DNA of 32,813 nucleotides from an uncultured Gammaproteobacteria bacterium (GTDB lineage: Bacteria; Patescibacteriota; Microgenomatia; UBA12405), in the NCBI GenBank assembly GCA_964448065.1, contig CAYUUU010000002.1, positions 1 to 32,813 on the forward strand, in the 5' to 3' direction. Position numbers and translations under genes: made by a program. Each line of letters opens with the position of its first letter. The first letter of the stretch is position 1. Below the pieces are notes generated by a model. It made no database searches, had not been told where the DNA came from, and saw nothing but the letters and a program-made list of their open reading frames with translations. Shown in pieces: positions 1,800 through 31,414 of this stretch.

Positions 1800-1811
1800 A
1801 GCTCTAATAAT

Positions 1812-2951: not shown

Positions 2952-2960
2952 ACTAAACAT

Positions 2961-3554: not shown

Positions 3555-3556
3555 AT

Positions 3557-7677: not shown

Positions 7678-7679
7678 AC

Positions 7680-9712: not shown

Positions 9713-9726
9713 TTTTTAATTATTAA

Positions 9727-10812
9727 TTGAAACCAAAAATTGCTCTCTTTTATGATTGGCTTAACCAATGGGGTGGAGCCGAAAAAGTTTTATTAGATTT
9801 AATTAAAACTTTTCCCAATGCGCCTGTCTATACTCTAATTTACAACCCTAAAACAACCAAATGGTTGCCAAAAAAAATTAAAATCAACTCATCTTTTTTA
9901 AATAAAATTTCCATATTTAAAAAAAATTCCATTTTTCAAACTCCATTTTATTATTTAGCTCTAAAGCATTTTGATTTTTCTAAATACGATATTGTTATTT
10001 CTACAACTCAAGTTATCGGACACAGTTTAAACGTTCCCAAAAAAACTATTTTTATCTGTTATTTTCACAATATCAATCGTTATGTTTATCAAACTCCATC
10101 TCATTTTAATTTTTTAAAACCATTACTAAATATTTATAAAAAAATCGACTTTAAATTTGGTCAAAAACCAAATTATATTTTTTGCAATTCTAAAACTGTC
10201 CAACAACGAATTGAAAAAAATTACCATCGAAAAGCTAAGGTTATTAATCCTGGTATTGACACTTCCTTTTTTATTCCATCCGCTATTAAAACTACTAATG
10301 ATTATTTTTTAATTGTGTCTCGTCTGGTTACTCATAAAAAAATCGATATTGCCATTAATGCTTGTCATCAACTTCATAAAAAACTTTATATCGTTGGAAA
10401 TGGTCGAGATTATTCTCGTCTTAATAAAATAATTTCTAAACTAAACGATCCTAATATTAAATTGTTAGGATTTGTTGATGATCAAAAATTATTAACTTTT
10501 TATCAAAATTGCCAAGCTTTAATTTGTCCCCAAATAGAGGATTTTGGCCTGACCCCACTCGAAGCCCAAGCTTGTGGTAAACCAATTATTGCCCTAAGAA
10601 AAGGTGGTTTAACCGAAACTGTAATTAATAATAAAACTGGTATTTTTTTTAATCACCAAACAGTTAGATCATTAATCCATGCCATTAAAAAATTTGACCA
10701 TCATCGTTTTAACAAAAATATTTGTCGTCAAAATGCTCTTAAATTTTCTCGTCAAAAATTTATGTTAAACTTTAAAAACGAAGTTTATTCCCTATGGCAC
10801 AAACAACAATAA
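9727..10812 (+). CDS. Glycosyltransferase family 4 (TTG start)
   Basis: 361 aa. N-terminus KIALFYDWLNQWGGAEKV and motif EDFGLTPLEAQACGKPIIALRKGGLTETV. The codon at 9727 is TTG. Confidence 0.85.
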   Translation: MKPKIALFYDWLNQWGGAEKVLLDLIKTFPNAPVYTLIYNPKTTKWLPKKIKINSSFLNKISIFKKNSIFQTPFYYLALKHFDFSKYDIVISTTQVIGHSLNVPKKTIFICYFHNINRYVYQTPSHFNFLKPLLNIYKKIDFKFGQKPNYIFCNSKTVQQRIEKNYHRKAKVINPGIDTSFFIPSAIKTTNDYFLIVSRLVTHKKIDIAINACHQLHKKLYIVGNGRDYSRLNKIISKLNDPNIKLLGFVDDQKLLTFYQNCQALICPQIEDFGLTPLEAQACGKPIIALRKGGLTETVINNKTGIFFNHQTVRSLIHAIKKFDHHRFNKNICRQNALKFSRQKFMLNFKNEVYSLWHKQQ

Positions 10813-11888
10813 ATCATTATATTTTTGTCCTTTGTGGTGGTACTGGTCCCAGATTATGGCCACTTTCTCGCAAACAAAATCCTAAACAATTTTTGTCTTT
10901 TTTTGGCAAAGATTCATTATTAGAACAAACAATTCAAAGAGCTGGCAAGGTAGTCGATTCAAACAATATTTTTATTGTTAGCAACGATAATTATTTACAA
11001 AAAATAATTAAAATTGCTCAAAAATTTTCTATTAGTAAAAATATTATTACCGAACCAGAAAAGAAAAATACCGCTCTTGCCATCCTGTATGCCACCACTA
11101 AAATTAAGCAATTTGATCCAGAAGCAATTATTACGACTCTACCATCAGACCATTATATAAAAAATATTAATAAATTTAAAAACGACTTAATTAAAGCCAA
11201 AAATATTGCTTGTAATTATCAAAAAATAGTTACTATTGGTATTAAACCAACCAGTCCAAATCCAGCTTATGGTTATATAAAACCTAAAATTTTTGTTGAC
11301 AATTATTATTCAGTTGAATCTTTTGTCGAAAAACCACCAGTCGAAATTGCTTCAAAATTGATTGAAAATAATTCTTATTGGAATTCTGGAATTTATACTT
11401 TTTCCATAAATACTCTAATTAATGAATTCAAAGAATTGCAACCAGAATATTATTCAATATATAAAAAATTAGAACAAAATTTAAATCAACCCCAAAAAAT
11501 TAAAACTATTTACCAACAAGCTCCAGAACTAGCCATAGACCGAGCCATCTCAGAAAAATCAACTAAAATGGCTATGATTCCAGCTTCTTTTGATTGGAGT
11601 GATGTGGGTGAGTGGGGTGCTATTTTTAAAACTCTTTCAAAAGGTGACAATAAAAATATTTCCCTTAATTCTAAAACTCAATTTCTTAGTACTAATTCCA
11701 ATAATTGTCTTATTTCTGGAACCGACAAAAAATTAATTGGTTTAGTTGGTGTAAAAAATTTAGCTATTATTGATACCAATGATGCTCTTTTAGTTTGTGA
11801 TTTGGACTCTAGTTTTAATGTCCGTGATTTAGTAAGCTTGATAGTGAAACACAAAAAATATAAAATCTATTTTTTAGGCAAAAAATGA
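10794..11888 (+). CDS. manC: Mannose-1-phosphate guanylyltransferase (nucleotidyltransferase domain only)
   Basis: 364 aa. The N-terminal signature VLCGGTGPRLWPLSR and the later EKPxxE...YWNSGIY and DVGEWG motifs are typical of ManC/CpsB-type GDP-mannose pyrophosphorylases. Confidence 0.8.
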   Translation: MAQTTINHYIFVLCGGTGPRLWPLSRKQNPKQFLSFFGKDSLLEQTIQRAGKVVDSNNIFIVSNDNYLQKIIKIAQKFSISKNIITEPEKKNTALAILYATTKIKQFDPEAIITTLPSDHYIKNINKFKNDLIKAKNIACNYQKIVTIGIKPTSPNPAYGYIKPKIFVDNYYSVESFVEKPPVEIASKLIENNSYWNSGIYTFSINTLINEFKELQPEYYSIYKKLEQNLNQPQKIKTIYQQAPELAIDRAISEKSTKMAMIPASFDWSDVGEWGAIFKTLSKGDNKNISLNSKTQFLSTNSNNCLISGTDKKLIGLVGVKNLAIIDTNDALLVCDLDSSFNVRDLVSLIVKHKKYKIYFLGKK

Positions 11889-12523
11889 AAAAAATTACTT
11901 TTAAAATCTTCAAAAGAACCATCGATATAGTTGGTTCGTTAATTCTTTTAGTTATCTTTTCTCCTATTTTTTTGGTCACTATGATCCTTGTCAAGGTAAC
12001 TTCGCCAGGACCAATATTTTTTAAACAAAAAAGAGTCGGCAAAAACAGTAAACAATTTTGGATGTATAAATTTCGTTCCATGTATACCGGAGACAACGAT
12101 AAACGATTAAGAGATAATTATCCTGAATTGTGGAAAAAATATAAAGAATCTGGTTGGAAATTAGAAATGTCCGAAGATCCCCGAATTACTCCAATTGGTA
12201 AAAAAATTAGATCACTAACTATCGATGAATTTCCTCAATTAGTTAACGTTTTAAAAGGGGATATGAGTTTAGTTGGACCACGAGCCTATCGAGAAGAAGA
12301 GTTACAAGAATATGAAGCCAAATTTCCTCATACCAAACACCTTATAGACGATATTCGATCGGCCAAACCAGGAATTACTGGAGTATGGCAAACATCTGGC
12401 AGAAACGATATTTCTTTTGAACAAAGAGCTCAAATGGATTCCAATTATATTCGTCACCAATCATTCTTAAACGAAATTGTCATTATTTTTAAAACTCCAA
12501 TGTCGATGTTATCACGTTGGTAA
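11885..12523 (+). CDS. Small monotopic phosphoglycosyl transferase (Bac_transf family, PglC/WbaP C-terminal type), the initiating enzyme
   Basis: 212 aa. One N-terminal hydrophobic helix, then PGPIFFKQKRVGKN...FWMYKFRSM...DPRITPIGKKIRSLTIDEFPQLVNVLKGDMSLVGPRA. Confidence 0.9.
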   Translation: MKKITFKIFKRTIDIVGSLILLVIFSPIFLVTMILVKVTSPGPIFFKQKRVGKNSKQFWMYKFRSMYTGDNDKRLRDNYPELWKKYKESGWKLEMSEDPRITPIGKKIRSLTIDEFPQLVNVLKGDMSLVGPRAYREEELQEYEAKFPHTKHLIDDIRSAKPGITGVWQTSGRNDISFEQRAQMDSNYIRHQSFLNEIVIIFKTPMSMLSRW

Positions 12524-15134: not shown

Positions 15135-15590
15135 ATGGCAAGAAAAGAAGTAGGAGAAATAAACGATAAAAGTTTTACTCTAAAAGGCCTTAAAAACCTA
15201 GCTAAAGAAATAAACATTCCTATTGAAGAGACGTTTCAAGAACTTAATATTCAAAACGGAAAAATAGCATTATTTCTTTTAGCTGAAGATATTCTTAATG
15301 AAGATCATTCACTCCCAACTGAAAAACTAGTTAGTCATGATTATTCACCCACAGACAAATCTTTTTTTTATAATTGTGCCCCAGCTATTAGTAGTGCTAT
15401 ACATGAGCGTGAAACAGCGTCTTCTCCAAAAGAATTAAAAACCGCTCTAGAAAAACTAGACCAAATACTCATCGAGAAAAGCGAAAAAGCTGAAACTGTC
15501 TATCAACTAAGTACTCTTTACTATACAGCTCCTACTGGAAGTAAAGCCAGAAAACCTATTTTGGAAAAAATCTACAAACTATTAAATTAA
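15135..15590 (+). CDS. Hypothetical soluble protein (orphan)
   Basis: 151 aa ORF with an ATG start and no TM segment or recognised motif. It is flanked by true intergenic spacers of 63 and 35 nt, unlike its neighbours. Confidence 0.5.
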   Translation: MARKEVGEINDKSFTLKGLKNLAKEINIPIEETFQELNIQNGKIALFLLAEDILNEDHSLPTEKLVSHDYSPTDKSFFYNCAPAISSAIHERETASSPKELKTALEKLDQILIEKSEKAETVYQLSTLYYTAPTGSKARKPILEKIYKLLN

Positions 15591-16949: not shown

Positions 16950-17645
16950 ATGAATAAAAAAAATTTAATCTTAGTTGCCTTAGTTATTTGTTCTTCTTTT
17001 TTATTTTCTGGTTGTGGCAAAAAGAAAACTGCTACTGTCGAAACCAAAGCCATCAAACAAACAGCTGTTGAACTAGAATTATCAAATTCCCAAAAACCAT
17101 ATATTTCTTTAATTCCTAGAAATGATGGTCACGAATTAACCTTAAAGGTTAGCAATATTTCTTCAAAAATTACCAATGCTGAATATGAATTAATCTACAC
17201 TGCCGAAGACGAAGGACTAGAAATTGAAAAAGGAGTTAATGGTACTGAAAAGATAAGTGGTTCTAGTTTTGAAAAAAAATTATTATTAGGAACTGAAAGT
17301 TGCACCAGTGGTTGTAAATATAAATATGACGAAGGTGTTACTGGTGGAACCTTATCTATAACTTTTACTACCGATGATAATAAATTTTATAAATTCGAAG
17401 CTCCTTTCAATATTAAAAATTCAACTGACATCAAAAAATCTGGATATTTATCTCTAGATTCAGAGGGATTTAAAGTATCTGGAACTGTAACACCTAAGAG
17501 TGATTATTTTATTGTTATTAAAAATTCTTCGGCTTATTCCATTTTTTCAAACGGTACCGGTAACGGAAAAATATCATCTATTGAACCATCCACTGTTACC
17601 AAATCAGACAAAAATACTTTTGTTGGTGACTATTTAATTCAATAA
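16950..17645 (+). CDS. Lipoprotein of unknown function
   Basis: 231 aa. Signal peptide plus lipobox (LVALVICSSFLFSGCG), with a beta-rich Thr/Ser/Gly mature part. Confidence 0.7.
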   Translation: MNKKNLILVALVICSSFLFSGCGKKKTATVETKAIKQTAVELELSNSQKPYISLIPRNDGHELTLKVSNISSKITNAEYELIYTAEDEGLEIEKGVNGTEKISGSSFEKKLLLGTESCTSGCKYKYDEGVTGGTLSITFTTDDNKFYKFEAPFNIKNSTDIKKSGYLSLDSEGFKVSGTVTPKSDYFIVIKNSSAYSIFSNGTGNGKISSIEPSTVTKSDKNTFVGDYLIQ

Positions 17646-18530
17646 ATGGAATTTCATACTCCTGTCCTAGCCACCGAAACTATAGATTCTCTAGGTGTCA
17701 AAGAAAACGGTATTTACATAGATGCTACTTTGGGTCATGGTGGTCACACTTTAGAAATTTTAAAAAAAGGCGGTGTTGTTTATGGGTTCGATCAAGATCC
17801 TATTAATTTAAAAACAGCCACCGACAGAATTGTTAGCCAAGGTTTTGACTCAAAATTTTTTCCAATTCACGCCAATTTTATAAATATTGAATCAATTGTC
17901 AATCAAAAAATTAATCAAAAAATAGATGGTTTAATTGCTGATCTTGGTCTTAGTCAAAGTCAACAAATTGGTCAAGGCAGGGGATTTTCTTTTAATGATG
18001 AACAATCTTTGGACATGAGATTGGACCCCAAAAATCAAGAATTAACCGCTGAAAACATAATTAACACTTGTGATTATGATGAATTATTTGAAATTTTTAG
18101 TAAATTAGCCCAAGAACAATATGCTAAACCATTAATTTTAAAAATAATCAGAGAACGACAAAAATCTCCTATTACTTCTGGTTCAAGATTGGCCGATATT
18201 ATCCGTGAATATTATAAAAACAATCATCTTAAATCAAAAATAGACCCTAGCACCAAAATATTTTTAGCTTTAAGAATTTATGTTAATGATGAATTGACCA
18301 ATCTTAAAAAAATTCTTTATCAGAGTTTAAAAATAGTTAAAAAAGGAGGAGTTGTTTCTATAATCACTTTTCATTCTGGAGAAGACCGAATTGTTAAACA
18401 ATTTATTAAAGATTATTCTAATCAAAAAGTTATCATCGAAAATAAAAAACCAATTAAAGCATCTTTTACTGAAATCAAAAACAATCCTTTATCTCGCTCA
18501 GCTACACTCAGATCGTACAAAATAATATAG
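17646..18530 (+). CDS. rsmH: 16S rRNA (cytosine1402-N4)-methyltransferase RsmH/MraW
   Basis: 294 aa. Motifs HTPVLATETIDSL...YIDATLGHGGHT...DLGLSQSQ...RGFSF...SGEDRIVK. It occupies the first position of the dcw cluster. Confidence 0.95.
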   Translation: MEFHTPVLATETIDSLGVKENGIYIDATLGHGGHTLEILKKGGVVYGFDQDPINLKTATDRIVSQGFDSKFFPIHANFINIESIVNQKINQKIDGLIADLGLSQSQQIGQGRGFSFNDEQSLDMRLDPKNQELTAENIINTCDYDELFEIFSKLAQEQYAKPLILKIIRERQKSPITSGSRLADIIREYYKNNHLKSKIDPSTKIFLALRIYVNDELTNLKKILYQSLKIVKKGGVVSIITFHSGEDRIVKQFIKDYSNQKVIIENKKPIKASFTEIKNNPLSRSATLRSYKII

Positions 18531-20458: not shown

Positions 20459-21781
20459 ATGTCTAAAAAATCTATTTCCTCTCTTAAACAAAGGATAAAA
20501 AATAAATTGTGGCACCGACCTAAAAACTTTTTAATTAGTTCTTACTTTAAATTTCCTTCAAAAAAATTAATTTTAATTGGAGTTACAGGAACTGATGGTA
20601 AAACTACCACCTGTCATTTAGTTCATCATGTTTTAACCAATGCTGGCATTAAAACAGGTCTAATTTCTACTACTGGTGCCAAAATTGGTATCAATGAATA
20701 TCCAACTGAACTTCACATGACATCTCCCGATCCAATTTTAATTCAAAAATTACTCAAAAAAATGGTTGATGAAGGAGTTACTCACGTAGTTTTGGAAGTT
20801 ACTGCTCATGCTTTAGATCAATATCGTTTTTTAGGTTGTCATTTTGAAGTTTCAGCTATCACCAATACTTCACATGAACATTTGGATTATTTCAAAAACA
20901 TGGAAAATTACATTAATATTAAAGCTAAATTATTTAAATATTCCAACAAAGTAATTCTTAATAAAGATGACCAATCTTTTAATCAAATTAAACAACAAAT
21001 TAATAAACCAGTTAAAAGTTACAGTATAAAAAACAAATCTGATTTCCAAGCTACCAAAATAAAATTATCTTCAAATTTACTCAGTTTTAAAGTTAATAAT
21101 CTTTCTTTTGTTACCGACAGTAATTATTATTATCAAACCTACAACATATTAGCTGCTTTAGCTATTATTGATAGCCTTAAAATTAGTCCAGAAATTTTAA
21201 TTGAAACTATTAAAAAATATCCTGAGACCAGTGGTCGTAGAGAAGAAATTTCTAACAGTTTTAAATTTAAAACCATTGTTGATTTTGCTCATACCCCAGC
21301 CGCCTTAGAAAATACTCTTTCTTCCCTCAAAAAAAACACTTCCGGTAACCTAATTGTTATTTTTGGAGCTACTGGTGGTCGAGATCAAAGTAAAAGACCA
21401 TTAATGGGAGAAGTTGTTTCTAATATCGCCAATATTGCTATTATTACTTCTGATGACACCAGAAACGAAAAAATAGATGATATTAATCAACAAATTATTA
21501 GCGGTATTAATTCCAAAAAGTCTGAGTTTGTTGATTTTCAGGTTATCGAAAACAATAGTCAAGTTCAAAAAATATTAGAATTAGCAAAAAATAAATTTGT
21601 TTATTTTAATATTCCTAACCGCCAAGACGCTTTTAATTTGGCTATTAAAATAGCTCAGACCAACGACACTGTTATCGCTTGCGGTAAAGGCCATGAAACC
21701 ACTATACTTAATGGTAAGACCGAATATCCCTGGTCTGAAGCAGAGGCTTTTAGATCTGCTTTCAGGTTTCGAAAACTTTAA
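20459..21781 (+). CDS. murE: MurE-type Mur ligase (UDP-MurNAc-L-Ala-D-Glu:diamino acid ligase) with a very short N-terminal domain
   Basis: 440 aa. P-loop GVTGTDGKTTT at aa 41-51. Motifs MTSPDPILIQ..., VVLEVTAHALDQYR, ITNTSHEHLDYF..Y..IKAKLF, GRREE...VDFAHTPAALE and FGATGGRDQSKRPLMG...ITSDDTRNE. Confidence 0.8.
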   Translation: MSKKSISSLKQRIKNKLWHRPKNFLISSYFKFPSKKLILIGVTGTDGKTTTCHLVHHVLTNAGIKTGLISTTGAKIGINEYPTELHMTSPDPILIQKLLKKMVDEGVTHVVLEVTAHALDQYRFLGCHFEVSAITNTSHEHLDYFKNMENYINIKAKLFKYSNKVILNKDDQSFNQIKQQINKPVKSYSIKNKSDFQATKIKLSSNLLSFKVNNLSFVTDSNYYYQTYNILAALAIIDSLKISPEILIETIKKYPETSGRREEISNSFKFKTIVDFAHTPAALENTLSSLKKNTSGNLIVIFGATGGRDQSKRPLMGEVVSNIANIAIITSDDTRNEKIDDINQQIISGINSKKSEFVDFQVIENNSQVQKILELAKNKFVYFNIPNRQDAFNLAIKIAQTNDTVIACGKGHETTILNGKTEYPWSEAEAFRSAFRFRKL

Positions 21782-21783
21782 TT

Positions 21784-22374
21784 ATGTCTCAATACAATAT
21801 TTCCAATCAAAACGATTTAGAAACCAACTATTCACTAGGCTATTTACCTCAAAGAAACAGTCCTCATCTTTTTTATTTTGACAGCAGTTGTCGATCAAAC
21901 TTAATCAACTTTAAACTTAGTTCTGAAAATCGCCGAATTTTGAATAAAACCGAAAATTTTAGTTTTACTAAAACAGAATCAAAAAAAATCAATTTTTCAT
22001 TAGAAATTCAAAAACAAATTTTTGGTTGGATTAAAAAACTGGAATGGGATTTTCCCATTAGTTCAGTTAAAAATATATTTACTAAACATATTTTTAATTA
22101 TATTTATGTTTGGAAAAACGAAAATAACGAAGTTGTTGCTTATGGTTTATGTCTTTTTACCCAAAGTATTAGTCATATTGCTTATGTTTTTTACAATCCA
22201 GAGTACAGTCATGGAAATTTACCTATTAGACTAGTTCTTCAAGTAATTATCGACAGTCAAGAATTGGGGCTAAAATACTGTTATCTCGGTCGTTTTTCCG
22301 AGTCGACTGGTTTTTATAAACGTAACATGCCCGGTTTTGAATATTTTAAAGATAATAATTGGATTACTTTATAG
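21784..22374 (+). CDS. Bpt/ATE-like (arginyl- or leucyl-tRNA--protein transferase family) aminoacyl-tRNA-dependent transferase
   Basis: 196 aa. The C-terminal half VVAYGLCLFTQSISHIAYVFYNPEYSHGNLPIRLVLQVIIDSQELGLKYCYLGRFSESTGFYKRNMPGFEYF..NNW follows the ATE_C/Bpt consensus as I recall it (..SAvYtFYdP.....slG....L..I..A...Gl.y.YLGY.I.....M.YK..F.P.E....W). N-terminal GYLPQR resembles the ATE_N CxYLPxR motif but lacks the Cys. Confidence 0.65.
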   Translation: MSQYNISNQNDLETNYSLGYLPQRNSPHLFYFDSSCRSNLINFKLSSENRRILNKTENFSFTKTESKKINFSLEIQKQIFGWIKKLEWDFPISSVKNIFTKHIFNYIYVWKNENNEVVAYGLCLFTQSISHIAYVFYNPEYSHGNLPIRLVLQVIIDSQELGLKYCYLGRFSESTGFYKRNMPGFEYFKDNNWITL

Positions 22375-22441: not shown

Positions 22442-22467
22442 TTAAGGGGTGGATTTTGTTTTTAATT

Positions 22468-23841
22468 ATGCATATACATATCGTCGGTATTGCTGGAACA
22501 ATGACAGCCAATTTAGCTGTTAGTCTAAAAAAACAAGGCCACATAATTACCGGATCGGATCAAGAAAAAATCTACCCACCTATCAGTACTACTTTAAAAA
22601 AAGCCAAAATTATTATTAACGACACTCCAATTAGCCACGATATAGATTTAGCTATTATTGGTTCTTCTTATGATTCTTTTGAGAAAACTAAACAAGAATT
22701 TGAACAAATAAAAAGTCTAAAAATTCCTTTTATTTCGGCTACCGAATACGTTGCCCAAAATTTAATCAAACAAAATTCAATTTTAGTTGCTGGAAGTTTT
22801 GGTAAAACTACTATTACCAGTTTAGTTAGTTGGATATTTTTAAAAGCCAAAAAAAATCCAAACTACATGATTGGAGGTAATATTAAAAACAAACTCGATT
22901 CAGTTCATTTTTCCCCATCAGATTGGTCAATCACCGAAGCTGATGAGTCAATTCACGGTCTAGATACTATGGCTAAATTTTTATATTATCCAGCTAAATA
23001 TTTGGTTTTAACTAGCGCTACTTGGGAACACAAAGACAGTTATTCCAGCGAAATTGATAATTTCAATTCTTTCAAAGAACTAATTCTAAAAATTCCAAAA
23101 GATGGAGTAATTTTAATAAACAATAAAAATGAGACTGCTAAAAAATTAGCTCTTTTTGCTAATGCAAAAGTTATAACTTATAATTCTTCCGATTCAGATT
23201 ATTTTATTGAAAAAATCCAAATTAAAGAAAATTTAACTACCATTTTGATTCATACTCCAACTGGATTAATTAAAGTTGATACCAAACTTATTGGTCAATT
23301 TAATTTTGAAAATATTTTAGCTGCTGTGGCTATTAGTGATTATTTGGGAATTAAAAGTCATTTTATTCAAAAGGCTATTTTTTCTTTTAATGGAGTTAAA
23401 AGACGATTAGAACTAATTGGTAATCATAAAAATATTTTATTTTTTGATGATTTTGCTCAATCAGATGATCGCATAAAATCGGCCATAAATGCCATAAAAC
23501 TTCACTTTCCTAAACACAATATTAAAGTTTTGTATCAACCTCATGCCAGTTTTATTCAATACAAAGACAGTTTAAAAAATTTTTCTTCTGCTTTTAATCT
23601 AGCTTCCGAAATAGTAGTTAGTCAAATTAACTATAAAAAAGATATTTCCAAAGATCAACGAACCACAGTTAGAGATTTTCAAGATCAAATTGGAAACAAG
23701 TTTCACTATTTACCTATAGAAAAAGATATTATTAGTTATTATAAAAAAAGTTTAAAACCAAAAGATATTTTAATTAATATGAGTTCTGGTGGTAAATCAG
23801 GTAATCATATAATTAAAAATATAATTAAAATTTTTAAATAA
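22468..23841 (+). CDS. MurC/Mpl-family Mur ligase, Mpl-like (UDP-MurNAc:peptide or L-Ala ligase)
   Basis: The ATG at 22468 gives MHIHIVGIAGTMTANLAVSLKKQGHIITGSDQEKIYPPISTTL. This closely parallels the E. coli Mpl N-terminus as I recall it (MRIHILGICGTFMGGLA...GHEVTGSDANVYPPMSTLL). Other motifs are the P-loop AGSFGKTTITS, ITEADES, GVKRRLE and the C-terminal ILINMSSGG. The track's TTG at 22456 adds 4 unlikely residues. Confidence 0.8.
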   Translation: MHIHIVGIAGTMTANLAVSLKKQGHIITGSDQEKIYPPISTTLKKAKIIINDTPISHDIDLAIIGSSYDSFEKTKQEFEQIKSLKIPFISATEYVAQNLIKQNSILVAGSFGKTTITSLVSWIFLKAKKNPNYMIGGNIKNKLDSVHFSPSDWSITEADESIHGLDTMAKFLYYPAKYLVLTSATWEHKDSYSSEIDNFNSFKELILKIPKDGVILINNKNETAKKLALFANAKVITYNSSDSDYFIEKIQIKENLTTILIHTPTGLIKVDTKLIGQFNFENILAAVAISDYLGIKSHFIQKAIFSFNGVKRRLELIGNHKNILFFDDFAQSDDRIKSAINAIKLHFPKHNIKVLYQPHASFIQYKDSLKNFSSAFNLASEIVVSQINYKKDISKDQRTTVRDFQDQIGNKFHYLPIEKDIISYYKKSLKPKDILINMSSGGKSGNHIIKNIIKIFK

Positions 23842-25176: not shown

Positions 25177-26211
25177 ATGATTCATTTATATCTAGGTTTA
25201 CTTTTATTTTCCTTTTTGCTTACCAGCATTTTAGTTGTTCCTTTTATTAATCTTCTTTACAAATTAAAATTTCAACGTCAAAAACAAAAAACTATCGATT
25301 TTCAAAATAAAAGAACTCCTATTTTTGATAAATTTCACAACTCTAAATCTGGAACTCCAGTTGGAGGTGGATTGTTAATTATTGTTTCAGTCTGTGTTTT
25401 ATTTTTATTTTTAATTCCATTATTCAGAGCTGCAAAAATTTTTATTTCTTCAAATTACAGAATCGATTTAGAAATTAGAATTTTATTTTTTACTTTTATT
25501 AGTTTTGGATTATTAGGTTTATACGATGATGTTTATAAATTTTTTGGTTTCAAAAAAACAGGTTTTTTTGGATTAAAAATGATTCATAAACTTATTCTTC
25601 AATTGGTAATTTCTATAGTTATTTCTTTGATGATTTATTTCCAATTAGGAATTAATTTTATTTATTTGCCATTTTTGGGAGCTATCAATTTAGGATTATT
25701 ATTTATTCCTGTTTCCACGATTATTATTACTGGATTCGCTAATTTTTTTAACATTACCGATGGACTTGATGGTCTATCTTGCGGACTTTTAATGATTGCT
25801 TTATTTGCTTTTTGGATATTGGCCAGTACCTCAATGGATACCGTTATTTCAACCTTTTTAGCTCTTTGGTTAGGAGCTTTAATAGCTTTTCTGTATTTTA
25901 ATATCTTTCCAGCCAGAATTTGGCTAGGTGATGTTGGTTCACTTTCCTTTGGAGCCACATTTGCTGTTATTGCTATTTTGTTAGGTAAAGTTGTTCCTCT
26001 TATTACTGTTGGTTCACCATTTATTATTGAAGGTCTTAGCAGTGCTATTCAAATGATTAGTAAAAAATATTTTAAAAAGAAAATTTTTCCAGCTGCTCCA
26101 ATTCATTTAACTTTACAACAAATTGGTTGGGAAGAACCAAAAATTGTTTCTAGAGCCTGGTTGGCTGGTATTATTTTATCTATATTTGGTCTATGGTTAG
26201 GATTAAATTAA
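25177..26211 (+). CDS. mraY: Phospho-N-acetylmuramoyl-pentapeptide transferase MraY
   Basis: 344 aa polytopic protein. Motifs GTPVGGG, YDDVYKF, NFFNITDGLDGLS, WLGDVGSLSFGA and PIHLTLQQ.GW.E.KIV. Confidence 0.95.
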   Translation: MIHLYLGLLLFSFLLTSILVVPFINLLYKLKFQRQKQKTIDFQNKRTPIFDKFHNSKSGTPVGGGLLIIVSVCVLFLFLIPLFRAAKIFISSNYRIDLEIRILFFTFISFGLLGLYDDVYKFFGFKKTGFFGLKMIHKLILQLVISIVISLMIYFQLGINFIYLPFLGAINLGLLFIPVSTIIITGFANFFNITDGLDGLSCGLLMIALFAFWILASTSMDTVISTFLALWLGALIAFLYFNIFPARIWLGDVGSLSFGATFAVIAILLGKVVPLITVGSPFIIEGLSSAIQMISKKYFKKKIFPAAPIHLTLQQIGWEEPKIVSRAWLAGIILSIFGLWLGLN

Positions 26212-26759
26212 CAGAATTACAAGAAGAAATCAGTCATTATCTTGGTGTTCCTTATTGGAAAAATAAACTTGATAATGGCAAAATAATTAAAGAAGGTTTT
26301 GAAGGTGGTAAGGGCAATTGTCGACAAATTGCCACCGAAACTATTCGACTTGCTCAAAAACAAAAAATCGATTTGGTGAATTTAACCGAACAAGAATTTT
26401 ATAATTTTCAAAAAAGAAATCATATCGGAATAGACTGTTCCGGACTTGTTTGCCAATTGTTAATTTTTTATGGTCAACTAATTAATAAAAAAATTGAATT
26501 TAACATTCGTCGTACTTCCGCCAATATGTTAACTTCATCTCCTTTAGCCAAAGAAATAAAACTAAAAGATGTTCGAACAGGGGATCTAATTCGCCAAAAA
26601 AATGGCCATCATGTTTTATTTATTATCGACAAAGAAGGGGATGTTATAAATTATGTTGATAGTTCACTTAAAGGCCGAGGAGTTAAATTAGGACAATATA
26701 ATATCAAAGACAAAAATTTTGAAAATGAAGGATTTTTCCGTTTATTTTTCTTCGATTAA
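26193..26759 (+). CDS. NlpC/P60-family cysteine peptidase/amidase, no signal peptide (predicted cytoplasmic)
   Basis: 188 aa. Catalytic Cys motif GIDCSGLVCQLL and His region VRTGDLIRQKNGHHVLFIIDKEGDVINYVDSS (compare E. coli MepS as I recall it: GMDCSGFV...TGDLVLF....GHVGIY....FVHAS). The N-terminus is hydrophilic (MVRIKLTELQEEISHY). It overlaps the mraY stop by 19 nt. Confidence 0.75.
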   Translation: MVRIKLTELQEEISHYLGVPYWKNKLDNGKIIKEGFEGGKGNCRQIATETIRLAQKQKIDLVNLTEQEFYNFQKRNHIGIDCSGLVCQLLIFYGQLINKKIEFNIRRTSANMLTSSPLAKEIKLKDVRTGDLIRQKNGHHVLFIIDKEGDVINYVDSSLKGRGVKLGQYNIKDKNFENEGFFRLFFFD

Positions 26760-26900
26760 TTCTCTGTATTTAAGAGGGCTAAGAGAAATAATCTCTACTT
26801 CAGTTCCACATTCACTACATTCCAAAATATCACCAACCATTAAGTTTTCACTTAATTTAATTTCGCTTTTACAATCTGGACAAATAACTTTTTCATTCAT
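26742..26900 (-). CDS. LysW-like zinc-ribbon protein (putative amino-group carrier protein), absent from the supplied ORF track
   Basis: The reverse complement of 26742..26900 reads ATG...TAA over 52 codons: MNEKVICPDCKSEIKLSENLMVGDILECSECGTEVEIISLSPLKYRELIEEK. CPDC and CSEC are separated by 17 residues. The pattern CPxC..E(I/L).L......G(D/E)(I/L)..C..CG.E(V/L)E(I/V)....PL followed by an acidic tail matches LysW/ArgW carriers as I recall them. The canonical EDWGE end is replaced by ELIEEK. Confidence 0.6.
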   Translation of the reverse strand: MNEKVICPDCKSEIKLSENLMVGDILECSECGTEVEIISLSPLKYRELIEEK

Positions 26901-26925
26901 AATTCAATTAATTTTAATTAACTAG

Positions 26926-26931
26926 TATAAT
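26926..26931 (+). promoter_or_regulatory. Candidate -10 box (TATAAT) 11 nt upstream of the PLP-enzyme ATG, in the divergent 42-nt spacer
   Basis: The sequence actagTATAATttagatattatATG is read directly and shows no Shine-Dalgarno motif. This spacer must also carry the promoter of the minus-strand LysW-like gene if that gene is expressed. Confidence 0.25.
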
Positions 26932-26942
26932 TTAGATATTAT

Positions 26943-27764
26943 ATGCCAAAAACACCATTAGTTAAAATAGACAATTTTTATCTTAAACGAGAAGACTTAA
27001 ATTTAACCGGATCAGCCAAAGACCGAGCTATTATTTTTCAAGTAGAAAATTTAAAAAAACAAGGTTTTAACCAGGCTGTAATTTCCAGTACTGGCAATGC
27101 TGCTATTTCCGCTGCCTATTTTTGTCAAAAAAATAATATTAAATTAACTGTTTTTTTATCTCCTGATGTTAATTTACACAAATTGGAAATCATTAAAAAA
27201 TATTCTCCAGAAATTATTTTTTCCAAGACAGCAATTAGTGACGCTATTAAATTTTCCAAAAATAATCAGGCTTATTTACTTCGACAATCAACCGATAAAA
27301 CTGCTCTAATTGGTTATCAACAAATCGGTAAAGAAATATTGGACCAACTTCCCCAAGTTACCAGTATTTTTATTCCAGTTGGCAGTGGCACAACTTTGTT
27401 AGGAATCAGTCAATCATTACCATCAAATGTTAAAATTTTTGCCGCTCAACCAGCCGTTAACTGTCCTATTTCTAAATTTTTTGATTCAAAATTTATTCCA
27501 GAAACAAAAAATATTACTGACGCTATTACTGTTAAGGCCGTTCCTTTGAAAGATGAAATTATAAAAACTATTAAAACTAGCCAAGGAAATGCCTTTACTA
27601 TTCAAAATCAAGAAATTATCGAGGCTTCAAATAAATTAAAATCAAACAAAATTGAAACCTCTTTAGAAGGAGCACTTGCCCTAGCTGCTTTTTTAAAAGC
27701 CAAAAATCAAAAAACCGATTTTGGTAATTATCCAGTCATTATTCTTACCGGATGTCAAAGATAA
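26943..27764 (+). CDS. Fold-type II (tryptophan-synthase-beta/PALP superfamily) PLP-dependent enzyme, short form
   Basis: 273 aa. The PLP-lysine motif KREDLNLTGSAKDRA compares with NPTGSFKDR in threonine synthase and SVKDR in cysteine synthase. Other motifs are SSTGNAAISAA and the phosphate loop PVGSGTTLLG. Confidence 0.8.
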   Translation: MPKTPLVKIDNFYLKREDLNLTGSAKDRAIIFQVENLKKQGFNQAVISSTGNAAISAAYFCQKNNIKLTVFLSPDVNLHKLEIIKKYSPEIIFSKTAISDAIKFSKNNQAYLLRQSTDKTALIGYQQIGKEILDQLPQVTSIFIPVGSGTTLLGISQSLPSNVKIFAAQPAVNCPISKFFDSKFIPETKNITDAITVKAVPLKDEIIKTIKTSQGNAFTIQNQEIIEASNKLKSNKIETSLEGALALAAFLKAKNQKTDFGNYPVIILTGCQR

Positions 27765-28873
27765 ATTTAACCACTCTTTTAAATAAAAATTTTGTCTTCT
27801 TCTTTTTAGTTGTTGACAATTTTTTGGATATTGAAGTCCCTAAACTTACTAATTTTAAAAAGATTTATCTGTCTGATTATCCATCAATAAAATTAAAAAA
27901 CAGTGGAGCTCTTTTAGCCAATCCAAAAGTAATTCAATACATTAAAGATAATTCTGAATCAAAAATTCCAGTTATTGTTCCTTTCAAACCATCAGCTAAA
28001 ATCGATTTTTTGTGCAAAAAATACGGTTGGTTAAAAGCTAGCAATGATGGTCAAATAAACCGATTTTTAGAAGATAAAATAAAATTTGCTCTACTCTGTA
28101 AAAAATATAATTTGCCAACCATTCCTCAAACAATTGATAAATTTAATCAAAAAAATTTTTCTAAATATCAAAAATTATATGGATCAAAATTGATTATTCA
28201 AACTCATTTTGGTTGGGCTGGAAACAGTACTTATTTATCCTCATCATGGTCAGAAATCTCAAATAAAATTGCTCCAAATGTAATTGTTAAATATTCTCCA
28301 TTAATTGAAAAATCTTACTCTCTTTTAAACAATTGCTGTTTAACCAAATTTGGTCTAATTCAAAGTCCACCAGCTCTTCAATATACTGGATTAAAAGAAT
28401 TAACCAGTAATCCTTTTACCACTGTTGGTCGTCAATGGCCTTCTTGTGCTCCTGTGGAAATAACCAATCAGGTTAAAGAAATAACTCAAAATTTTTCCAA
28501 AATTCTAGAAGAAATTAATTACAAGGGATTTTTTGGTTTAGATTTTTTAGTTAAAGACAATCAAGTTTTTCTTTTGGAATGCAATCCTCGATTAACAGCT
28601 TCTTTTGGTTTTTATACCAACCTTGAATTAATTCAAAAAATTACCCCTCTTTTTTATTTTCATTTAATCGAATTTACTCAAACAGATTACAAAATAGATA
28701 TTGAATCAGAACAAAAAAGATTTTATCTAAATTTTGTTGGCTCTGAAATAACTGCTAAAAATAAACATCAACAAACTATAAAAAAAGTACAATTTTTAAA
28801 ACCGATTTTTGACAACACAAATCTAACCAATTCTTCAATAAATTTATCGAAACTTGCCCATGAAAAAACTTAA
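27752..28873 (+). CDS. ATP-grasp carboxylate-amine ligase, subfamily undetermined
   Basis: 373 aa. Motifs FLEDKIKFALLCKKYNLPTIPQT, KLIIQTHFGWAGNSTY and the Mg/ATP motif YKGFFGLDFLVKDNQVFLLECNPRLTASFG. It overlaps the PLP gene by 13 nt and ftsW by 14 nt. Confidence 0.8.
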   Translation: MSKINLTTLLNKNFVFFFLVVDNFLDIEVPKLTNFKKIYLSDYPSIKLKNSGALLANPKVIQYIKDNSESKIPVIVPFKPSAKIDFLCKKYGWLKASNDGQINRFLEDKIKFALLCKKYNLPTIPQTIDKFNQKNFSKYQKLYGSKLIIQTHFGWAGNSTYLSSSWSEISNKIAPNVIVKYSPLIEKSYSLLNNCCLTKFGLIQSPPALQYTGLKELTSNPFTTVGRQWPSCAPVEITNQVKEITQNFSKILEEINYKGFFGLDFLVKDNQVFLLECNPRLTASFGFYTNLELIQKITPLFYFHLIEFTQTDYKIDIESEQKRFYLNFVGSEITAKNKHQQTIKKVQFLKPIFDNTNLTNSSINLSKLAHEKT

Positions 28874-30035
28874 ATCGCCATTGTTAATATTTTTAATTAG
28901 CTTAATTGTTATTGGTTTTGTTTTTATTTCTATTGCCTCATTAACCGAAGGAAATTCTACTATTGGAGACAAATATTATTTCATTAAAAAACAATCCATT
29001 TGGTTAGTTTTAGGGTTTATTAGTTTTTTTATAAGCTCCAAAATAAAAATAGATTTTATAAAAAAAATTTCTTTTCTACTTTATAGTGCTTCTATTGTTG
29101 GTTTAATTTTAGTGTTAATACCTGGATTTGGAAATGAAGCCTTGGGTGCTAAACGTTGGTTAAATCTTGGATTTACCAGCATTCAACCATCAGAAATATT
29201 AAAACTAACCTCAATTATTTATTTCTCTTATCTCTTTTCCAAAGAAGACAAAAAAAATATAAAAACCCTAGTAATTTATTTAGCTATCCCTTTTATCCTT
29301 ATTATTATTGAACCAAACCTAAGTATGGCCTTATTAATTTCTGTAATTGTTTGTTCCATTTATTATCTTTCTGGGGGCAACATAATTCCACTTTTTTTTA
29401 TTAGTCTTTTTGTTTTAATTATTAGTATTCCTTTAATTTTTTTATCTCCATATCGTTCCGCTCGTTTTAAAACTTTTATTAGTCCGGAACAAAACCAAGA
29501 AGGGTCTTCTTATCATAGTAATCAAATTGTTTTGGCTCTGGCCTCTGGAGGAATGTTTGGTAAAGGTTTTGCCAACTCTGATCAAAAATATAAATTTTTA
29601 CCCAAAATTTCCACTGATTCAATATTGGCTGTTATTGGTGAAGAAATGGGATTTGTTGGACTTTTTGTTATCTTATTAATCTATATTTCTTTAATCAATT
29701 ATCTTTTTAAACTTAGTAAAAATCTTATCGATCCTTTTCAAAGTCTTTTAACTTCAGCCACTGCTTGTTGGATTGCTTATCAAAGCCTAATTAATATAGC
29801 TGCCATTGTTGCTGCTATTCCTTTGACCGGAGTTCCTCTACCTTTTATTTCCTATGGGGGATCTTCTCTTTTAACCCTTTTAACCGCTATGGGGTTAATC
29901 AGAAATATCGAAAAAAATAATCAAAACTTGATATACTCAGATAGTAATAATGAAAATAAAAACTCAAAAAATAATCATCACCGGCACCCATCTGACTCCA
30001 GCCTTGGAACTAATTCGTCAATTACAAGAAGATAA
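28860..30035 (+). CDS. ftsW: FtsW/RodA/SpoVE (SEDS) family peptidoglycan polymerase
   Basis: The ATG at 28860 is preferred over the track's TTG at 28854. The protein is polytopic. Motifs GAKRWLNLGFTSIQPSEILK, DSILAVIGEEMGFVG and PLTGVPLPFISYGGSS. It ends in a low-complexity Asn/Ser tail. Confidence 0.9.
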   Translation: MKKLKSPLLIFLISLIVIGFVFISIASLTEGNSTIGDKYYFIKKQSIWLVLGFISFFISSKIKIDFIKKISFLLYSASIVGLILVLIPGFGNEALGAKRWLNLGFTSIQPSEILKLTSIIYFSYLFSKEDKKNIKTLVIYLAIPFILIIIEPNLSMALLISVIVCSIYYLSGGNIIPLFFISLFVLIISIPLIFLSPYRSARFKTFISPEQNQEGSSYHSNQIVLALASGGMFGKGFANSDQKYKFLPKISTDSILAVIGEEMGFVGLFVILLIYISLINYLFKLSKNLIDPFQSLLTSATACWIAYQSLINIAAIVAAIPLTGVPLPFISYGGSSLLTLLTAMGLIRNIEKNNQNLIYSDSNNENKNSKNNHHRHPSDSSLGTNSSITRR

Positions 30036-31047
30036 AAAATATAATTGGGAAATATATTATATTGGTCGTAAAAAAAATTCCAGTGTCGATAATACTGCTT
30101 CAATTGAATCACAAATTATTCCTAATCTAGGGATTAAATTTTTTCCAATTGATTGTGGAAAACTAGATCGTCGTTGGCTTCCAAACACCATAAAGGGAAT
30201 TCCTCAAAGTGTCTCTGGTTTTTTTTCTGCTTTTAAATTAGTTAATAAAATTAAACCAAATATTGTTATTTCTTTTGGAGGATATGTTTCTGTTCCAGTT
30301 ATTATTATTTCTTTTTTTAAAAAAATCCCTAGTATCACCCACGAACAAACTTTAACCAACAGTTTAACCACCAAAATTAATAGCCTTTTTGTTACTAAAG
30401 TAGCTCTATCTTTTAAAAATAACCAGCAAATTAATCAACTTCCCAAAAATAAAGTAGTTATAACCGGAAATTTACTTCGTTATCAATTATTTAACTCCAA
30501 TACCATCTCTATTAAAAATTTCCATACTAAAACTAAAAATTATCCTATTATTTTTATTACCGCCGGAAACCAAGGATCCCATGTTGTTAATCTAATTGTT
30601 AAAAAAATCATTAAAACTTTACCAGAATATTTCTTTGTTCATCAAACTGGTAAAAATGACATTTCTGAATTTAAAAAAATAGAATCAAAACAAAAAAATT
30701 ATCTTTGTTTTGATTATATTAATACTAACGATTTTGGTTATTTGCTTAAAAATAGTAATTTAATTATTAGTCGAGCTGGCGCTAACACTTGTCAAGAAAT
30801 AGTTGCTCTAAATCAAAAGTCAATTTTAATTCCACTTTTAGTTAGTCAACAAGATGAACAAATCTTAAATGCCAAATGGGTAAAATCTCTTAATCCAAAT
30901 GAAACTGAAATTATTTATCAAGACAAATTATCTTCACAACTATTAACCAACGCTATCAAAAAATTAATTGACCAGAAAACAAATAAAAATAAAAAAAATA
31001 TTGAAATTAATTATCAACTTTTAAAACTTGTCCATGAAATTGTTTAA
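29950..31047 (+). CDS. murG: MurG (UDP-GlcNAc:lipid I GlcNAc transferase) with a variant first G-loop
   Basis: 365 aa. IIITGTHLTPALE compares with E. coli GGTGGHVFPGLA. Other motifs are ITAGNQGSHVVN and SRAGANTCQEIVAL...ILIPL...QDEQ..NA. It lies after ftsW and overlaps the ftsW tail by 86 nt. Confidence 0.85.
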   Translation: MKIKTQKIIITGTHLTPALELIRQLQEDKKYNWEIYYIGRKKNSSVDNTASIESQIIPNLGIKFFPIDCGKLDRRWLPNTIKGIPQSVSGFFSAFKLVNKIKPNIVISFGGYVSVPVIIISFFKKIPSITHEQTLTNSLTTKINSLFVTKVALSFKNNQQINQLPKNKVVITGNLLRYQLFNSNTISIKNFHTKTKNYPIIFITAGNQGSHVVNLIVKKIIKTLPEYFFVHQTGKNDISEFKKIESKQKNYLCFDYINTNDFGYLLKNSNLIISRAGANTCQEIVALNQKSILIPLLVSQQDEQILNAKWVKSLNPNETEIIYQDKLSSQLLTNAIKKLIDQKTNKNKKNIEINYQLLKLVHEIV

Positions 31048-31414
31048 GTTTTTGTTACCATTATTATCTTTAGTTTTAATCAGTTATTCAATTTTTTCCC
31101 TAAATCATTCTTTTAAACCAGAAATTACTCCTATTTCTGCTAAAAATGATTTTTATACCAAACTAAACAATTCTTTGAATCAAATTAATCTAGATATTAG
31201 TCAAATTACATTTAGGGATTATCAAAATCAAATAGAATTCTATATAATGGAAGATAACAACACTAGTAAAGTTCTTTTATCTACTCAAAAAGATCCTTAT
31301 TGGCAAATTGCTTCTTTGCAAGAAGTTTTAAAAAAGTCTAAAATTGAAGGGAAAAAACCTTATTTAATCGATCTTAGCATCGATAACCCATATGCAACAT
31401 TCAAAAATAATTAG
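31034..31414 (+). CDS. Minimal FtsQ/DivIB-like bitopic protein (assignment by position only)
   Basis: The ATG at 31034 is preferred over the track's TTG at 31028 and gives 126 aa. It has one TM (LLPLLSLVLISYSIFSL) and a small extracytoplasmic domain. It lies immediately upstream of ftsA and overlaps it. I recognise no sequence motif. Confidence 0.4.
   Translation: MKLFKFLLPLLSLVLISYSIFSLNHSFKPEITPISAKNDFYTKLNNSLNQINLDISQITFRDYQNQIEFYIMEDNNTSKVLLSTQKDPYWQIASLQEVLKKSKIEGKKPYLIDLSIDNPYATFKNN

Follow-up and report, generated by a model that had tools for sequence, protein, structure and literature searches.

Here we examine a four-gene cassette in the division and cell wall (dcw) gene cluster of an uncultured member of the Microgenomates, carried on a 32,813-nucleotide stretch of DNA (contig CAYUUU010000002.1, assembly GCA_964448065.1) that was analysed at its full length and is referred to below as the window. 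The cassette encodes an NlpC/P60-type peptidase, a small LysW-like zinc-ribbon protein, a fold-type-II pyridoxal phosphate (PLP) enzyme and an ATP-grasp ligase, and it lies between mraY and ftsW, where canonical relatives carry murD. The interpretation we favour, to which we assign a probability of roughly 0.4, is that the cassette is the MurD-less form of a module serving the second-residue (D-Glu) step of stem-peptide synthesis, with the zinc-ribbon protein acting as a carrier. The more general claim that a carrier pathway is coupled to the MurD step seems to us rather probable; the specific chemistry of the carrier cycle is put forward tentatively, and may well be wrong in its particulars.

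The occupancy of the slot was surveyed through an MraY-anchored scan with one genome per GTDB species, an anchor chosen independently of the cassette, which gave 80 loci at 55-84% identity; neighbouring genes were mapped by BLASTP against the window proteins and NCBIfam-classified references. Each neighbourhood covers at most 10 kb around the anchor gene, and the absence of a gene from it is an absence at the level of the cluster. Among complete mraY-ftsW intervals, the cassette fills the slot at 48 loci (46 from the MraY scan; two without the P60 gene), murD at 16 and the P60 gene alone at one, eight slots are empty, and the cassette and murD occur together at none. The canonical Microgenomates order is ftsI-murE-pgeF-murC-murB-murA-murF-mraY-murD-ftsW, as exemplified by locus L054, whose murD product scores 401 bits. 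The gene order and strands of the window recur in 46 species-level loci of the scan, which places the arrangement far beyond chance, and in two relatives with ATP-grasp ligases about 55% identical to that of the window the order is the same down to the antisense carrier gene. The cassette is ancient and conserved, and not a recent insertion; its four proteins each have hundreds of close relatives which, where named, belong to Shapirobacteria, Woesebacteria or Microgenomates.

The strongest evidence that murD was displaced in place is the pattern found in five divergent cassettes (L060, L066, L068, L081 and L090), whose ATP-grasp ligases are 35-40% identical to that of the window. Their clusters retain murE, a murC-like gene, murB, murA and murF (as well as ddl in L066) and carry the cassette at the murD position, so that murD is the only gene missing. 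One of these, L090, represents a new lineage among the four loci returned by a metagenome scan with the L066 ATP-grasp ligase, and a further dcw-located cassette, again without murD, was found at L103/L104. In the window itself, mraY overlaps the P60 gene by 19 nucleotides, the PLP gene overlaps the ATP-grasp gene by 13, and the latter overlaps ftsW by 14 (20 from a TTG start), while the P60 and carrier genes converge with an overlap of 18 nucleotides. No Mur ligase lies in the slot, MurE and a MurC-like protein being the only ones in the window by NCBIfam classification, and family profile searches of the window returned no murD, murF, ddl, murB or murI and no LysZ-, LysY-, LysJ- or LysK-type genes. 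The initial annotation, made from the sequence alone, had described four non-canonical genes in the murD slot, the plus-strand ones interlocked with the flanking wall genes, had argued against a recent random insertion, and had made the cassette idea depend on co-occurrence of the four in related genomes; on each of these points the coordinates, overlaps and survey bear it out.

Genomic contexts of divergent carriers with the same C-terminal -EEK tail connect the cassette to MurD more directly, as a MurD-type ligase adjoins the carrier gene in six other lineages (CPR2 L099/L100, L092, L094, L097/098, L101 and L102). In candidate division CPR2 (L099/L100), away from dcw genes, P60 is followed by MurD, the antisense carrier, the PLP enzyme and the ATP-grasp ligase, which is the order and strandedness of the window with a MurD added between the P60 and carrier genes; NCBI names this ligase MurD, and its 251 bits on the murD model exceed the cutoff. 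On L092, a contig of 50-57% G+C that is probably from Planctomycetota, genes for the carrier, P60, a MurD-like ligase (206 bits), the PLP enzyme and the ATP-grasp ligase are all co-directional, and the remaining lineages repeat either MurD-like, carrier (antisense) and PLP enzyme, or P60, MurD-like and carrier. The CPR2 proteins are 34% (PLP enzyme), 30% (ATP-grasp) and 48% (carrier) identical to those of the window. The L099 P60 protein has no direct BLAST match to its window counterpart at an E-value of 1e-2, and the link between the two is supplied by L094_226, at 35% identity to the window protein. By order, strands and homology, the window holds four of the five members of this module and lacks the MurD-type one. 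Since elsewhere these genes surround a MurD-type ligase in unchanged order, we regard the window cassette as derived, with MurD missing, from a five-gene module that centres on MurD.

In alignment, the MurD proteins of the module form a distinct subgroup, with an insertion in the N-domain, E-x-S-x-RQL replacing ELSSFQL, and a remodelled C-terminal SPACAS(F/L)D...DRG motif, alongside retention of the invariant Lys of GGxxK and Thr of NDxxST. Judging by their E. coli MurD equivalents, the retained residues presumably contact the alpha-carboxylate of D-Glu, and the remodelled motif its gamma-carboxylate. Lys348, Ala414 and Leu416 have been placed near D-Glu in MurD (PMC8788868). The pattern in the module proteins suggests a Glu-like substrate with a blocked or altered side chain.

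Two further genes of the window (Table 1), an ATE_C-like gene and a divergent murC, occur only alongside the MurD-less cassette. The ATE_C-like gene occupies the pgeF position of canonical relatives, and is present at 38 of the 39 cassette loci with upstream sequence and at none of 11 non-cassette loci. NCBIfam arginyltransferase models match its product at E 8e-7, far under their cutoffs, and a PDB search returned only a marginal GNAT match; a 197-residue gene downstream of the CPR2 module is unrelated to it. ATE and Bpt enzymes acylate N-terminal Asp or Glu, drawing the amino acid from aminoacyl-tRNA. The MurC-like ligase falls well below the murC cutoff and scores just 83 bits on the murD model. 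It is 34% identical to the MurC-like protein of the L066 type and 22-29% identical to canonical Microgenomates MurC; the L066 ortholog scores 246.9 bits on the murC and 188.1 bits on the mpl model, against 393 and 162.9 bits for canonical L054 MurC.

Table 1. Positions, strands and profile matches of the cassette, its companion genes and flanking dcw genes in the window.
Feature	Coordinates	Strand	Length	Profile match
rsmH	17646-18530	+		
murE	20459-21781	+	440 aa	348 bits
ATE_C/Bpt-like GNAT-fold protein, putative aminoacyl-tRNA transferase	21784-22374	+	196 aa	PF04377, E 9e-6 (above gathering threshold)
Divergent MurC/Mpl-like Mur ligase	22456-23841	+	461 aa	TIGR01082, 237.6 bits (cutoff 335); mpl, 177.5 bits
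mraY (upstream slot boundary)	25177-26211	+		Pfam Glycos_transf_4, E 2e-28; TIGR00445, 166 bits (under cutoff of 192)
NlpC/P60-type peptidase	26193-26759	+	188 aa	Pfam NLPC_P60, E 9e-4
LysW-like zinc-ribbon protein (proposed carrier)	26742-26900	-	52 aa	PF21344, E 2e-13
Fold-type-II PLP enzyme	26943-27764	+	273 aa	PALP, E 7e-45
ATP-grasp ligase	27752-28873	+	373 aa	ATP-grasp_3, E 4e-8
ftsW (downstream slot boundary)	28854 or 28860 to 30035	+		FTSW_RODA_SPOVE, E 2e-90

The proposed carrier is a true homolog of LysW, a likeness that the initial annotation had already noticed. It matches Zn_ribbon_LysW (PF21344) at 50 bits against a gathering threshold of 27, and its residues 6-50 align with T. 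thermophilus LysW (3wwl, E 1e-7) and with the 53-residue chain 5k2m_E (E 7e-7), which we take to be Thermococcus LysW. With LysW and ArgW it shares the globular domain, a Cys4 zinc ribbon (CxxC-17-CxxC, a pattern found in 101 of 120 homologs), and it is acidic, with 12 acidic against six basic residues. It does not share their C-terminal Glu (EDWGE type), the residue that bears the substrate on its gamma-carboxyl. The alignment to LysW ends at residue 47 of 54, and the carrier tail, ...YRELIEEK, is five residues shorter; -EEK forms the end of 117 of the 120 homologs and of all but one of 53 carriers from the survey, four of the five most divergent among them, and the LysW model TIGR01206 gives 38.7 bits against a cutoff of 53.2. 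A census of tails, based on an exhaustive search of 1.84 billion representatives, found among 72 small single-domain LysW-family representatives 27 ending in -EEK and eight with the canonical -WGE, as separate groups. By these measures the -EEK proteins define a large subfamily of their own among LysW-like proteins, for which the database name 'lysine biosynthesis protein LysW' is probably a mis-annotation. That pipeline name and the LysW-homologous globular domain are what could be cited for taking the cassette as a fragment of ordinary LysW-dependent lysine or arginine biosynthesis. We give this hardly any credence, and the initial annotation had likewise set an ordinary lysine pathway aside: the C-terminal Glu is missing, the TIGR01206 score stays under its cutoff, the context is always dcw genes or MurD, and the window, like the related loci that were read for gene content, contains neither a LysX/RimK-type ligase nor LysZ, LysY, LysJ or LysK.

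The antisense frame itself is a genuine gene. In CPR (candidate phyla radiation) lineages it always lies antisense to the operon; differences among orthologs concentrate at the third codon position of its minus frame (20,949, against 10,421 and 6,525 at the other two), and the plus-strand frames that overlap it stay open in no more than 16 of 51 loci. Such broken plus frames, and variation that fits the codon positions of the minus frame, rule out the carrier frame as an artefact of a 68-residue plus-strand open reading frame (26719-26925). A sigma-70-like promoter match (10 of 12 positions, TTAACT-16-TATAAT) lies upstream of the carrier gene at 26965-26938 on the minus strand, within the first codons of the PLP gene; as promoter and terminator matches are no commoner here than in shuffled sequence, it does not count as evidence. 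An apparent LysW-like fusion in a 366-residue open reading frame of L068 proved to be merely a 20-residue zinc-knuckle match. Elsewhere in the LysW-like set, three proteins (P0361, 807 residues; P0378, 1330 residues; P0405, 580 residues) carry up to eight or nine tandem LysW-like zinc-ribbon repeats, and many small members have other tails, long stretches of Asp/Glu that finish in W, Y or D, which are neither of the canonical LysW nor of the -EEK type.

The PLP enzyme has the hallmarks of the PALP fold, with the Schiff-base Lys26 (GSAKDR) and the SS(T/S)GNAA loop invariant across orthologs. Its best NCBIfam matches are archaeal-type threonine synthases, the best of them, PRK08329, at 108 bits against a cutoff of 358; SbnA and cysteine synthase models match more weakly, and PDB sequence matches at about E 1e-11 comprise cysteine synthase, CysM (3dwg) and threonine synthase. 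An N-terminal segment, 'GIWRY..LP..LSLGEGxTP', which presumably marks class II threonine synthases, is kept in the L066, L068 and L090 orthologs and is absent from the window protein. Given the low score and the missing segment, the enzyme is derived from a class II threonine synthase without being one by the NCBIfam cutoff. It therefore descends from an enzyme of phospho-amino-acid elimination or addition, not from a racemase or dehydratase, and we propose that it converts an amino acid that is bound to, or destined for, the carrier.

The same PLP matches, read together with the carrier tail, underlie a quite unlikely alternative in which the C-terminal Lys of the carrier is itself the substrate for a diamino-dicarboxylic acid of the lysinoalanine type, a surrogate of diaminopimelate (DAP) used by MurE at position 3. 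A CysM/SbnA-like PLP enzyme would add aminoacrylate from O-phosphoserine to the epsilon-amine of this Lys, P60 would clip off the product, and the ATP-grasp ligase would re-add Lys to the -EE stump, as tubulin-tyrosine ligase re-adds tyrosine. Such a scheme would account for an encoded, invariant terminal Lys and would close a cycle that employs all four genes; the matches of the PLP enzyme do include cysteine synthases, CysM and SbnA, and in Fusobacterium a fold-type-II PLP enzyme makes the DAP surrogate lanthionine. However, it leaves unexplained why the module is linked to MurD rather than MurE, why the cassette and murD exclude each other and why the MurD pocket is altered, and L-Lys already serves at position 3 in many bacteria.

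For the ATP-grasp ligase, which has 533 homolog clusters (53-93% identity among the best 120), the best NCBIfam match is PRK06524, 'biotin carboxylase-like' (E 4e-31, residues 28-324). Ddl reaches E 1e-3, with Ddl models scoring 16-18 bits against cutoffs of 246-310 (TIGR01205, 15.9 against 245.65), and neither LysX nor RimK models appear among the NCBIfam matches listed, so that the carrier is not accompanied by a partner of the RimK branch. Its AlphaFold model is confident (pLDDT, the predicted local distance difference test, 93), and the Foldseek matches listed for it are generic: biotin carboxylase, PurK and CPS, at a TM score of about 0.6. Sequence and profile searches of the PDB found no close relative, returning only a generic C-terminal ATP-grasp motif. 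The ligase belongs to an uncharacterised clade nearest PRK06524 that is neither LysX/RimK-like nor Ddl-like, and we propose that it loads the carrier by making an amide bond on its tail. The closest annotated relatives are PRK06524-type proteins encoded on Rhizobium and Chondrinema plasmids, 25-28% identical over about 73% of its length. At two loci (L085, 5040-10237; L086, 3330-10319) a PRK06524-type ATP-grasp gene lies between genes for a large PLP enzyme, of the beta-eliminating lyase or ornithine decarboxylase type, and a C45 peptidase.

These affinities bear on the second of two readings given by the initial annotation, in which a racemase-like PLP enzyme and a Ddl-like ATP-grasp ligase would replace missing Alr/Ddl or Mur steps. 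Ddl is indeed an ATP-grasp enzyme, serine and aspartate racemases are of fold type II, and ddl is absent from the window. Nevertheless, the Ddl scores lie an order of magnitude under their cutoffs, the fold search is headed by other ATP-grasp families, and the PLP enzyme is threonine-synthase-derived. Furthermore, a genuine ddl (347 bits) and murF adjoin the L066 cassette, and because both can sit beside it the replacement of Ddl fails as an explanation. We consider this reading extremely improbable.

The P60 protein falls below the Pfam NlpC/P60 gathering threshold by sequence alone (19.7 against 23). Its AlphaFold model (pLDDT 90) finds its best PDB matches among NlpC/P60 endopeptidases, namely the MAP1204 P60 domain, MepS, RipA and a putative NlpC/P60 D,L-endopeptidase of T. 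thermophilus (the matches including 3i86, 8xup, 4q4t and 4xcm), and it has the papain-like fold and Cys-His-polar triad of the superfamily: across 31 aligned orthologs Cys82 and His140 never vary, and Asp156 is conserved to at least 90%. The protein has 325 homolog clusters, and its orthologs in L092 and L099 match the MepS model at E 1e-20 to 1e-22. Its N-terminus, MVRIKLTELQEEISHYLGVPYWKN, contains no hydrophobic segment and no signal peptide of the kind that marks secreted hydrolases, in agreement with the initial description of a signal-less enzyme, and the protein is for that reason predicted to be cytoplasmic. Characterised NlpC/P60 wall enzymes cut gamma-D-Glu-diamino-acid bonds. We propose that this cytoplasmic NlpC/P60-type cysteine peptidase releases the adduct from the carrier. 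The P60 gene is optional in some lineages, being missing from the cassettes of L060, L062, L081 and L103, and the conserved core consists of the carrier, PLP enzyme and ATP-grasp genes.

A cytoplasmic NlpC/P60 protein also resembles recycling endopeptidases, CPR bacteria are generally thought to depend on hosts, and the Mpl score of the MurC-like ligase is, in relative terms, higher than that of canonical MurC. Together these features could be taken to indicate salvage of host muropeptides, in which P60 would play the part of YkfC in trimming scavenged stem peptides and the fragments would be rejoined to UDP-MurNAc by the Mpl-like ligase, bypassing MurC and MurD, with the carrier, PLP enzyme and ATP-grasp ligase unrelated to the process. 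The dispensable member of the cassette is, however, the very gene on which salvage would depend; three tightly coupled and conserved genes would be left without a role, and the module also occurs on the probable Planctomycetota contig. We therefore hold salvage to be very unlikely.

Under the interpretation we favour, the components would act as a cycle on the carrier. The ATP-grasp ligase would use ATP to link an amino acid through an amide bond to the -EEK tail, the likeliest candidate being glutamate, joined by its gamma-carboxyl group to the terminal Lys; this linkage would leave the alpha-amino-acid end free, as any PLP enzyme requires. The PLP enzyme would then act on the free alpha end of the tethered residue, by epimerisation to the D form or by another conversion at C-alpha or C-beta. 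In CPR2 and on the probable Planctomycetota contig, the MurD of the module would join the alpha-amine to the L-Ala of UDP-MurNAc-L-Ala; in the lineage of the window, the ATE_C-like transferase would instead add L-Ala, and the Mpl-like MurC would subsequently ligate the dipeptide. Finally, the NlpC/P60 enzyme would cut the gamma-glutamyl-lysine-type bond, passing the product on to MurE and regenerating the carrier. Stated in full, the scenario is that a CPR clade comprising Shapirobacteria, Woesebacteria and relatives makes the L-Ala-D-Glu part of the stem peptide without MurD or a free D-Glu pool, by way of Glu on the -EEK carrier, epimerisation by the PLP enzyme, extension by the Ala-tRNA-dependent ATE/Bpt-type protein, release by P60 and ligation by the Mpl-like MurC; so detailed a sequence of events is speculative and unlikely to be correct as a whole. 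Of the two readings in the initial annotation, it was the first, a cycle in which a small carrier is loaded and its cargo modified and released, that gave the best framework, reinforced here by true homology to LysW and by direct linkage to a MurD-type ligase. It needed correction in three respects, as the tail ends in -EEK and not in Glu, the ATP-grasp ligase is not LysX/RimK-like and the PLP enzyme comes from a threonine synthase, and its membership has to be widened to genes outside the four originally delimited: the ATE_C-like transferase, the divergent MurC and, ancestrally, a specialised MurD.

Several points weigh against a MurD-replacing carrier pathway. The chemistry of every step, like the attachment atom on the -EEK tail, is a proposal; threonine-synthase-type PLP enzymes are not known to be racemases; and since some cassettes have no P60 gene, release may not need it. 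The cassette lineages may go back to a single ancestral event, in which case the 48:16:0 split does not amount to 64 independent observations. In addition, among the eight loci with empty slots, L071 and L072 keep the canonical murE-pgeF-murC-murB-murA set upstream, showing that murD can lie outside the cluster, and murB, murF and ddl are likewise outside the cluster in the lineage of the window, whether elsewhere or lost, which weakens any inference from the absence of murD.

The empty slots and the missing murB, murF and ddl, along with the coexistence of the module with a MurD-type ligase in CPR2 and on the probable Planctomycetota contig, are also what would be expected of an accessory tailoring or branch system. 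Here the cassette would supply an extra or modified stem residue, such as a branching D-amino acid attached to Lys or a group substituted on the alpha-carboxyl of D-Glu, and a normal murD would lie elsewhere in the genome. There is precedent for such systems in Enterococcus and Lactococcus, in which pairs of an ATP-grasp enzyme and a racemase (Aslfm/racemase) build D-Asp branches. An accessory role nevertheless appears unlikely to us: it does not explain the strict exclusivity of cassette and murD at the slot, the correlated loss of pgeF, divergence of MurC and gain of the ATE_C-like gene, or the remodelled amino-acid pocket of the module MurDs, and it offers no obvious role for a carrier.

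Beyond the cassette, the window has a G+C content of about 29% and, with the exception of one small reading frame, all of its genes lie on the plus strand, a block of surface-polysaccharide genes being followed by the dcw cluster in the order rsmH, ftsI, murE, ATE_C-like gene, MurC-like ligase gene, murA, mraY, the four non-canonical genes, ftsW, murG, a 128-residue reading frame and ftsA. The polysaccharide block spans 12 kb (657-12523) and encodes glycosyltransferases, a Wzy-like polymerase, a hexapeptide acyltransferase, a nucleotidyl transferase and an initiating sugar transferase; a DUF4012 protein follows it, and the block immediately precedes the genes for RecO and an aminoacyl-tRNA synthetase and then the dcw cluster. 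Four conserved-looking reading frames (325-615, 15135-15590, 16950-17645 and 31028-31414) have no Pfam match; among the four are one of 231 residues at the usual position of mraZ and the 128-residue one, at that of ftsQ. MurE is short at its N-terminus both in the window and in canonical L054 (411 residues, 3142-4377): MurE models align only from about profile position 75-90, and most of the N-terminal domain, which binds UDP in MurE, seems to be gone across the group irrespective of the cassette. At the DNPR motif of MurE, which distinguishes DAP from Lys specificity, the window protein has no clean motif and reads 'SDDTRNE'.

Several loci depart from the arrangements described so far. Three of them (L067, L070 and L082, at about 8000-12100, from records labelled Shapirobacteria CG_4_10 and Amesbacteria) have a minimal ftsI-mraY-ftsW-murG cluster and lack any Mur ligase for 10 kb in both directions. 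At L044 (7804-14114) the order is rsmH-murE-mraY-P60-like-murG-ftsA; the P60-like gene is the sole cassette gene kept, and the site has no ftsI, ftsW, carrier, PLP enzyme or ATP-grasp gene. Some divergent cassettes contain extra reading frames between the P60 and carrier genes (L066, 11884-12516, minus strand; L088, 5535-6164, minus strand; L090, 7433-8276, plus strand): that of L066 encodes 210 residues on the strand of the carrier and has no NCBIfam match, and L090 has two frames of 137-149 residues. Many GTDB representative genomes, including L005, L006 and L008-L010, have records titled 'uncultured Gammaproteobacteria' or 'uncultured Pseudomonadales'; as their dcw clusters are 75-84% identical to that of this Microgenomates window, these titles look wrong.

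The cytoplasmic Mur pathway, a major target of antibiotics, is considered all but universal. We found no description of the cassette system in the full-text literature, and no paper mentioning both LysW and MurD, in line with the suggestion of the initial annotation that the module is undescribed. Comparison with known systems shows which of its features have precedents. In the LysW/ArgW pathways of Thermus, Sulfolobus and Thermococcus (LysW-LysX-LysZ-LysY-LysJ-LysK), a small, acidic Cys4 zinc-ribbon carrier with a flexible C-terminal tail, truly homologous to the present one, is likewise encoded beside an ATP-grasp ligase and a hydrolase, suggesting a common logic of loading, modification and release. 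In contrast to the shorter -EEK tail of the cassette carrier, the LysW tail ends in Glu (-WGE); its ligase is of the RimK/LysX type and its hydrolase is the M20 enzyme LysK, where the cassette has a PRK06524-like ATP-grasp and NlpC/P60; modification proceeds by a kinase, reductase and aminotransferase rather than by a threonine-synthase-like PLP protein; and the gene neighbours are those of lysine or arginine metabolism, whereas those of the cassette are MurD or the dcw cluster.

An alternative route to D-Glu at position 2, the one documented case that our literature searches found, exists in Xanthomonas, where the L-Glu-specific MurD2 works on UDP-MurNAc-L-Ala and MurL is an ATP-dependent nucleotide-dipeptide epimerase (PMC8788868). 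The likeness to the cassette is confined to the bypass of a free D-Glu pool and to a D-configuration made after ATP-dependent ligation, which would parallel epimerisation on the carrier. MurD2 is a MurD homolog, which the window lacks, and the Xanthomonas route has no carrier, PLP enzyme, ATP-grasp ligase or peptidase. A combination of carrier, fold-type-II PLP enzyme and peptidase is found in the CysO-CysM-Mec+ system of Mycobacterium tuberculosis, in which the carrier C-terminus reacts within the PLP enzyme and a dedicated peptidase releases the product, and CysM (3dwg) is among the best PDB matches of the cassette PLP enzyme. CysO, however, is a ubiquitin-like beta-grasp protein with a Gly-Gly thiocarboxylate and an adenylating activator, unlike the zinc ribbon, -EEK tail and ATP-grasp ligase of the cassette. 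Similarly, in the Pearlin/PEARL systems and in tubulin tyrosination an amino acid is attached by ATP-dependent ligation to the acidic tail of a reusable scaffold and taken off again by a cysteine protease, vasohibin and tubulin-tyrosine ligase (TTL) acting on an -EEY end that recalls the -EEK of the carrier; the enzymes are non-homologous (LanB-like PEARLs, and TTL as a remote ATP-grasp) and the context is unrelated. The trio of PRK06524-type protein, C45 peptidase and large PLP enzyme in Rhizobium and Chondrinema also associates an ATP-grasp ligase with a PLP enzyme and a cysteine peptidase and looks conserved, but it is uncharacterised, has neither a carrier gene nor a Mur context, and draws its PLP enzyme and peptidase from other families.

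Set against these systems, the cassette can be proposed to represent a case in which amino-acid chemistry on a carrier protein has been taken over, with a new set of enzymes, for making peptidoglycan precursors. If the position-2 residue is indeed made by way of a protein carrier, this would constitute a new biochemical logic for the synthesis of wall precursors and the first protein-carrier-dependent route in peptidoglycan biosynthesis, with a MurD-containing precursor form in CPR2 and probably Planctomycetota. It would likewise explain the apparent murD gap in a large uncultivated bacterial clade, and would widen the role of carriers of the LysW type beyond lysine and arginine metabolism to the synthesis of the cell wall.

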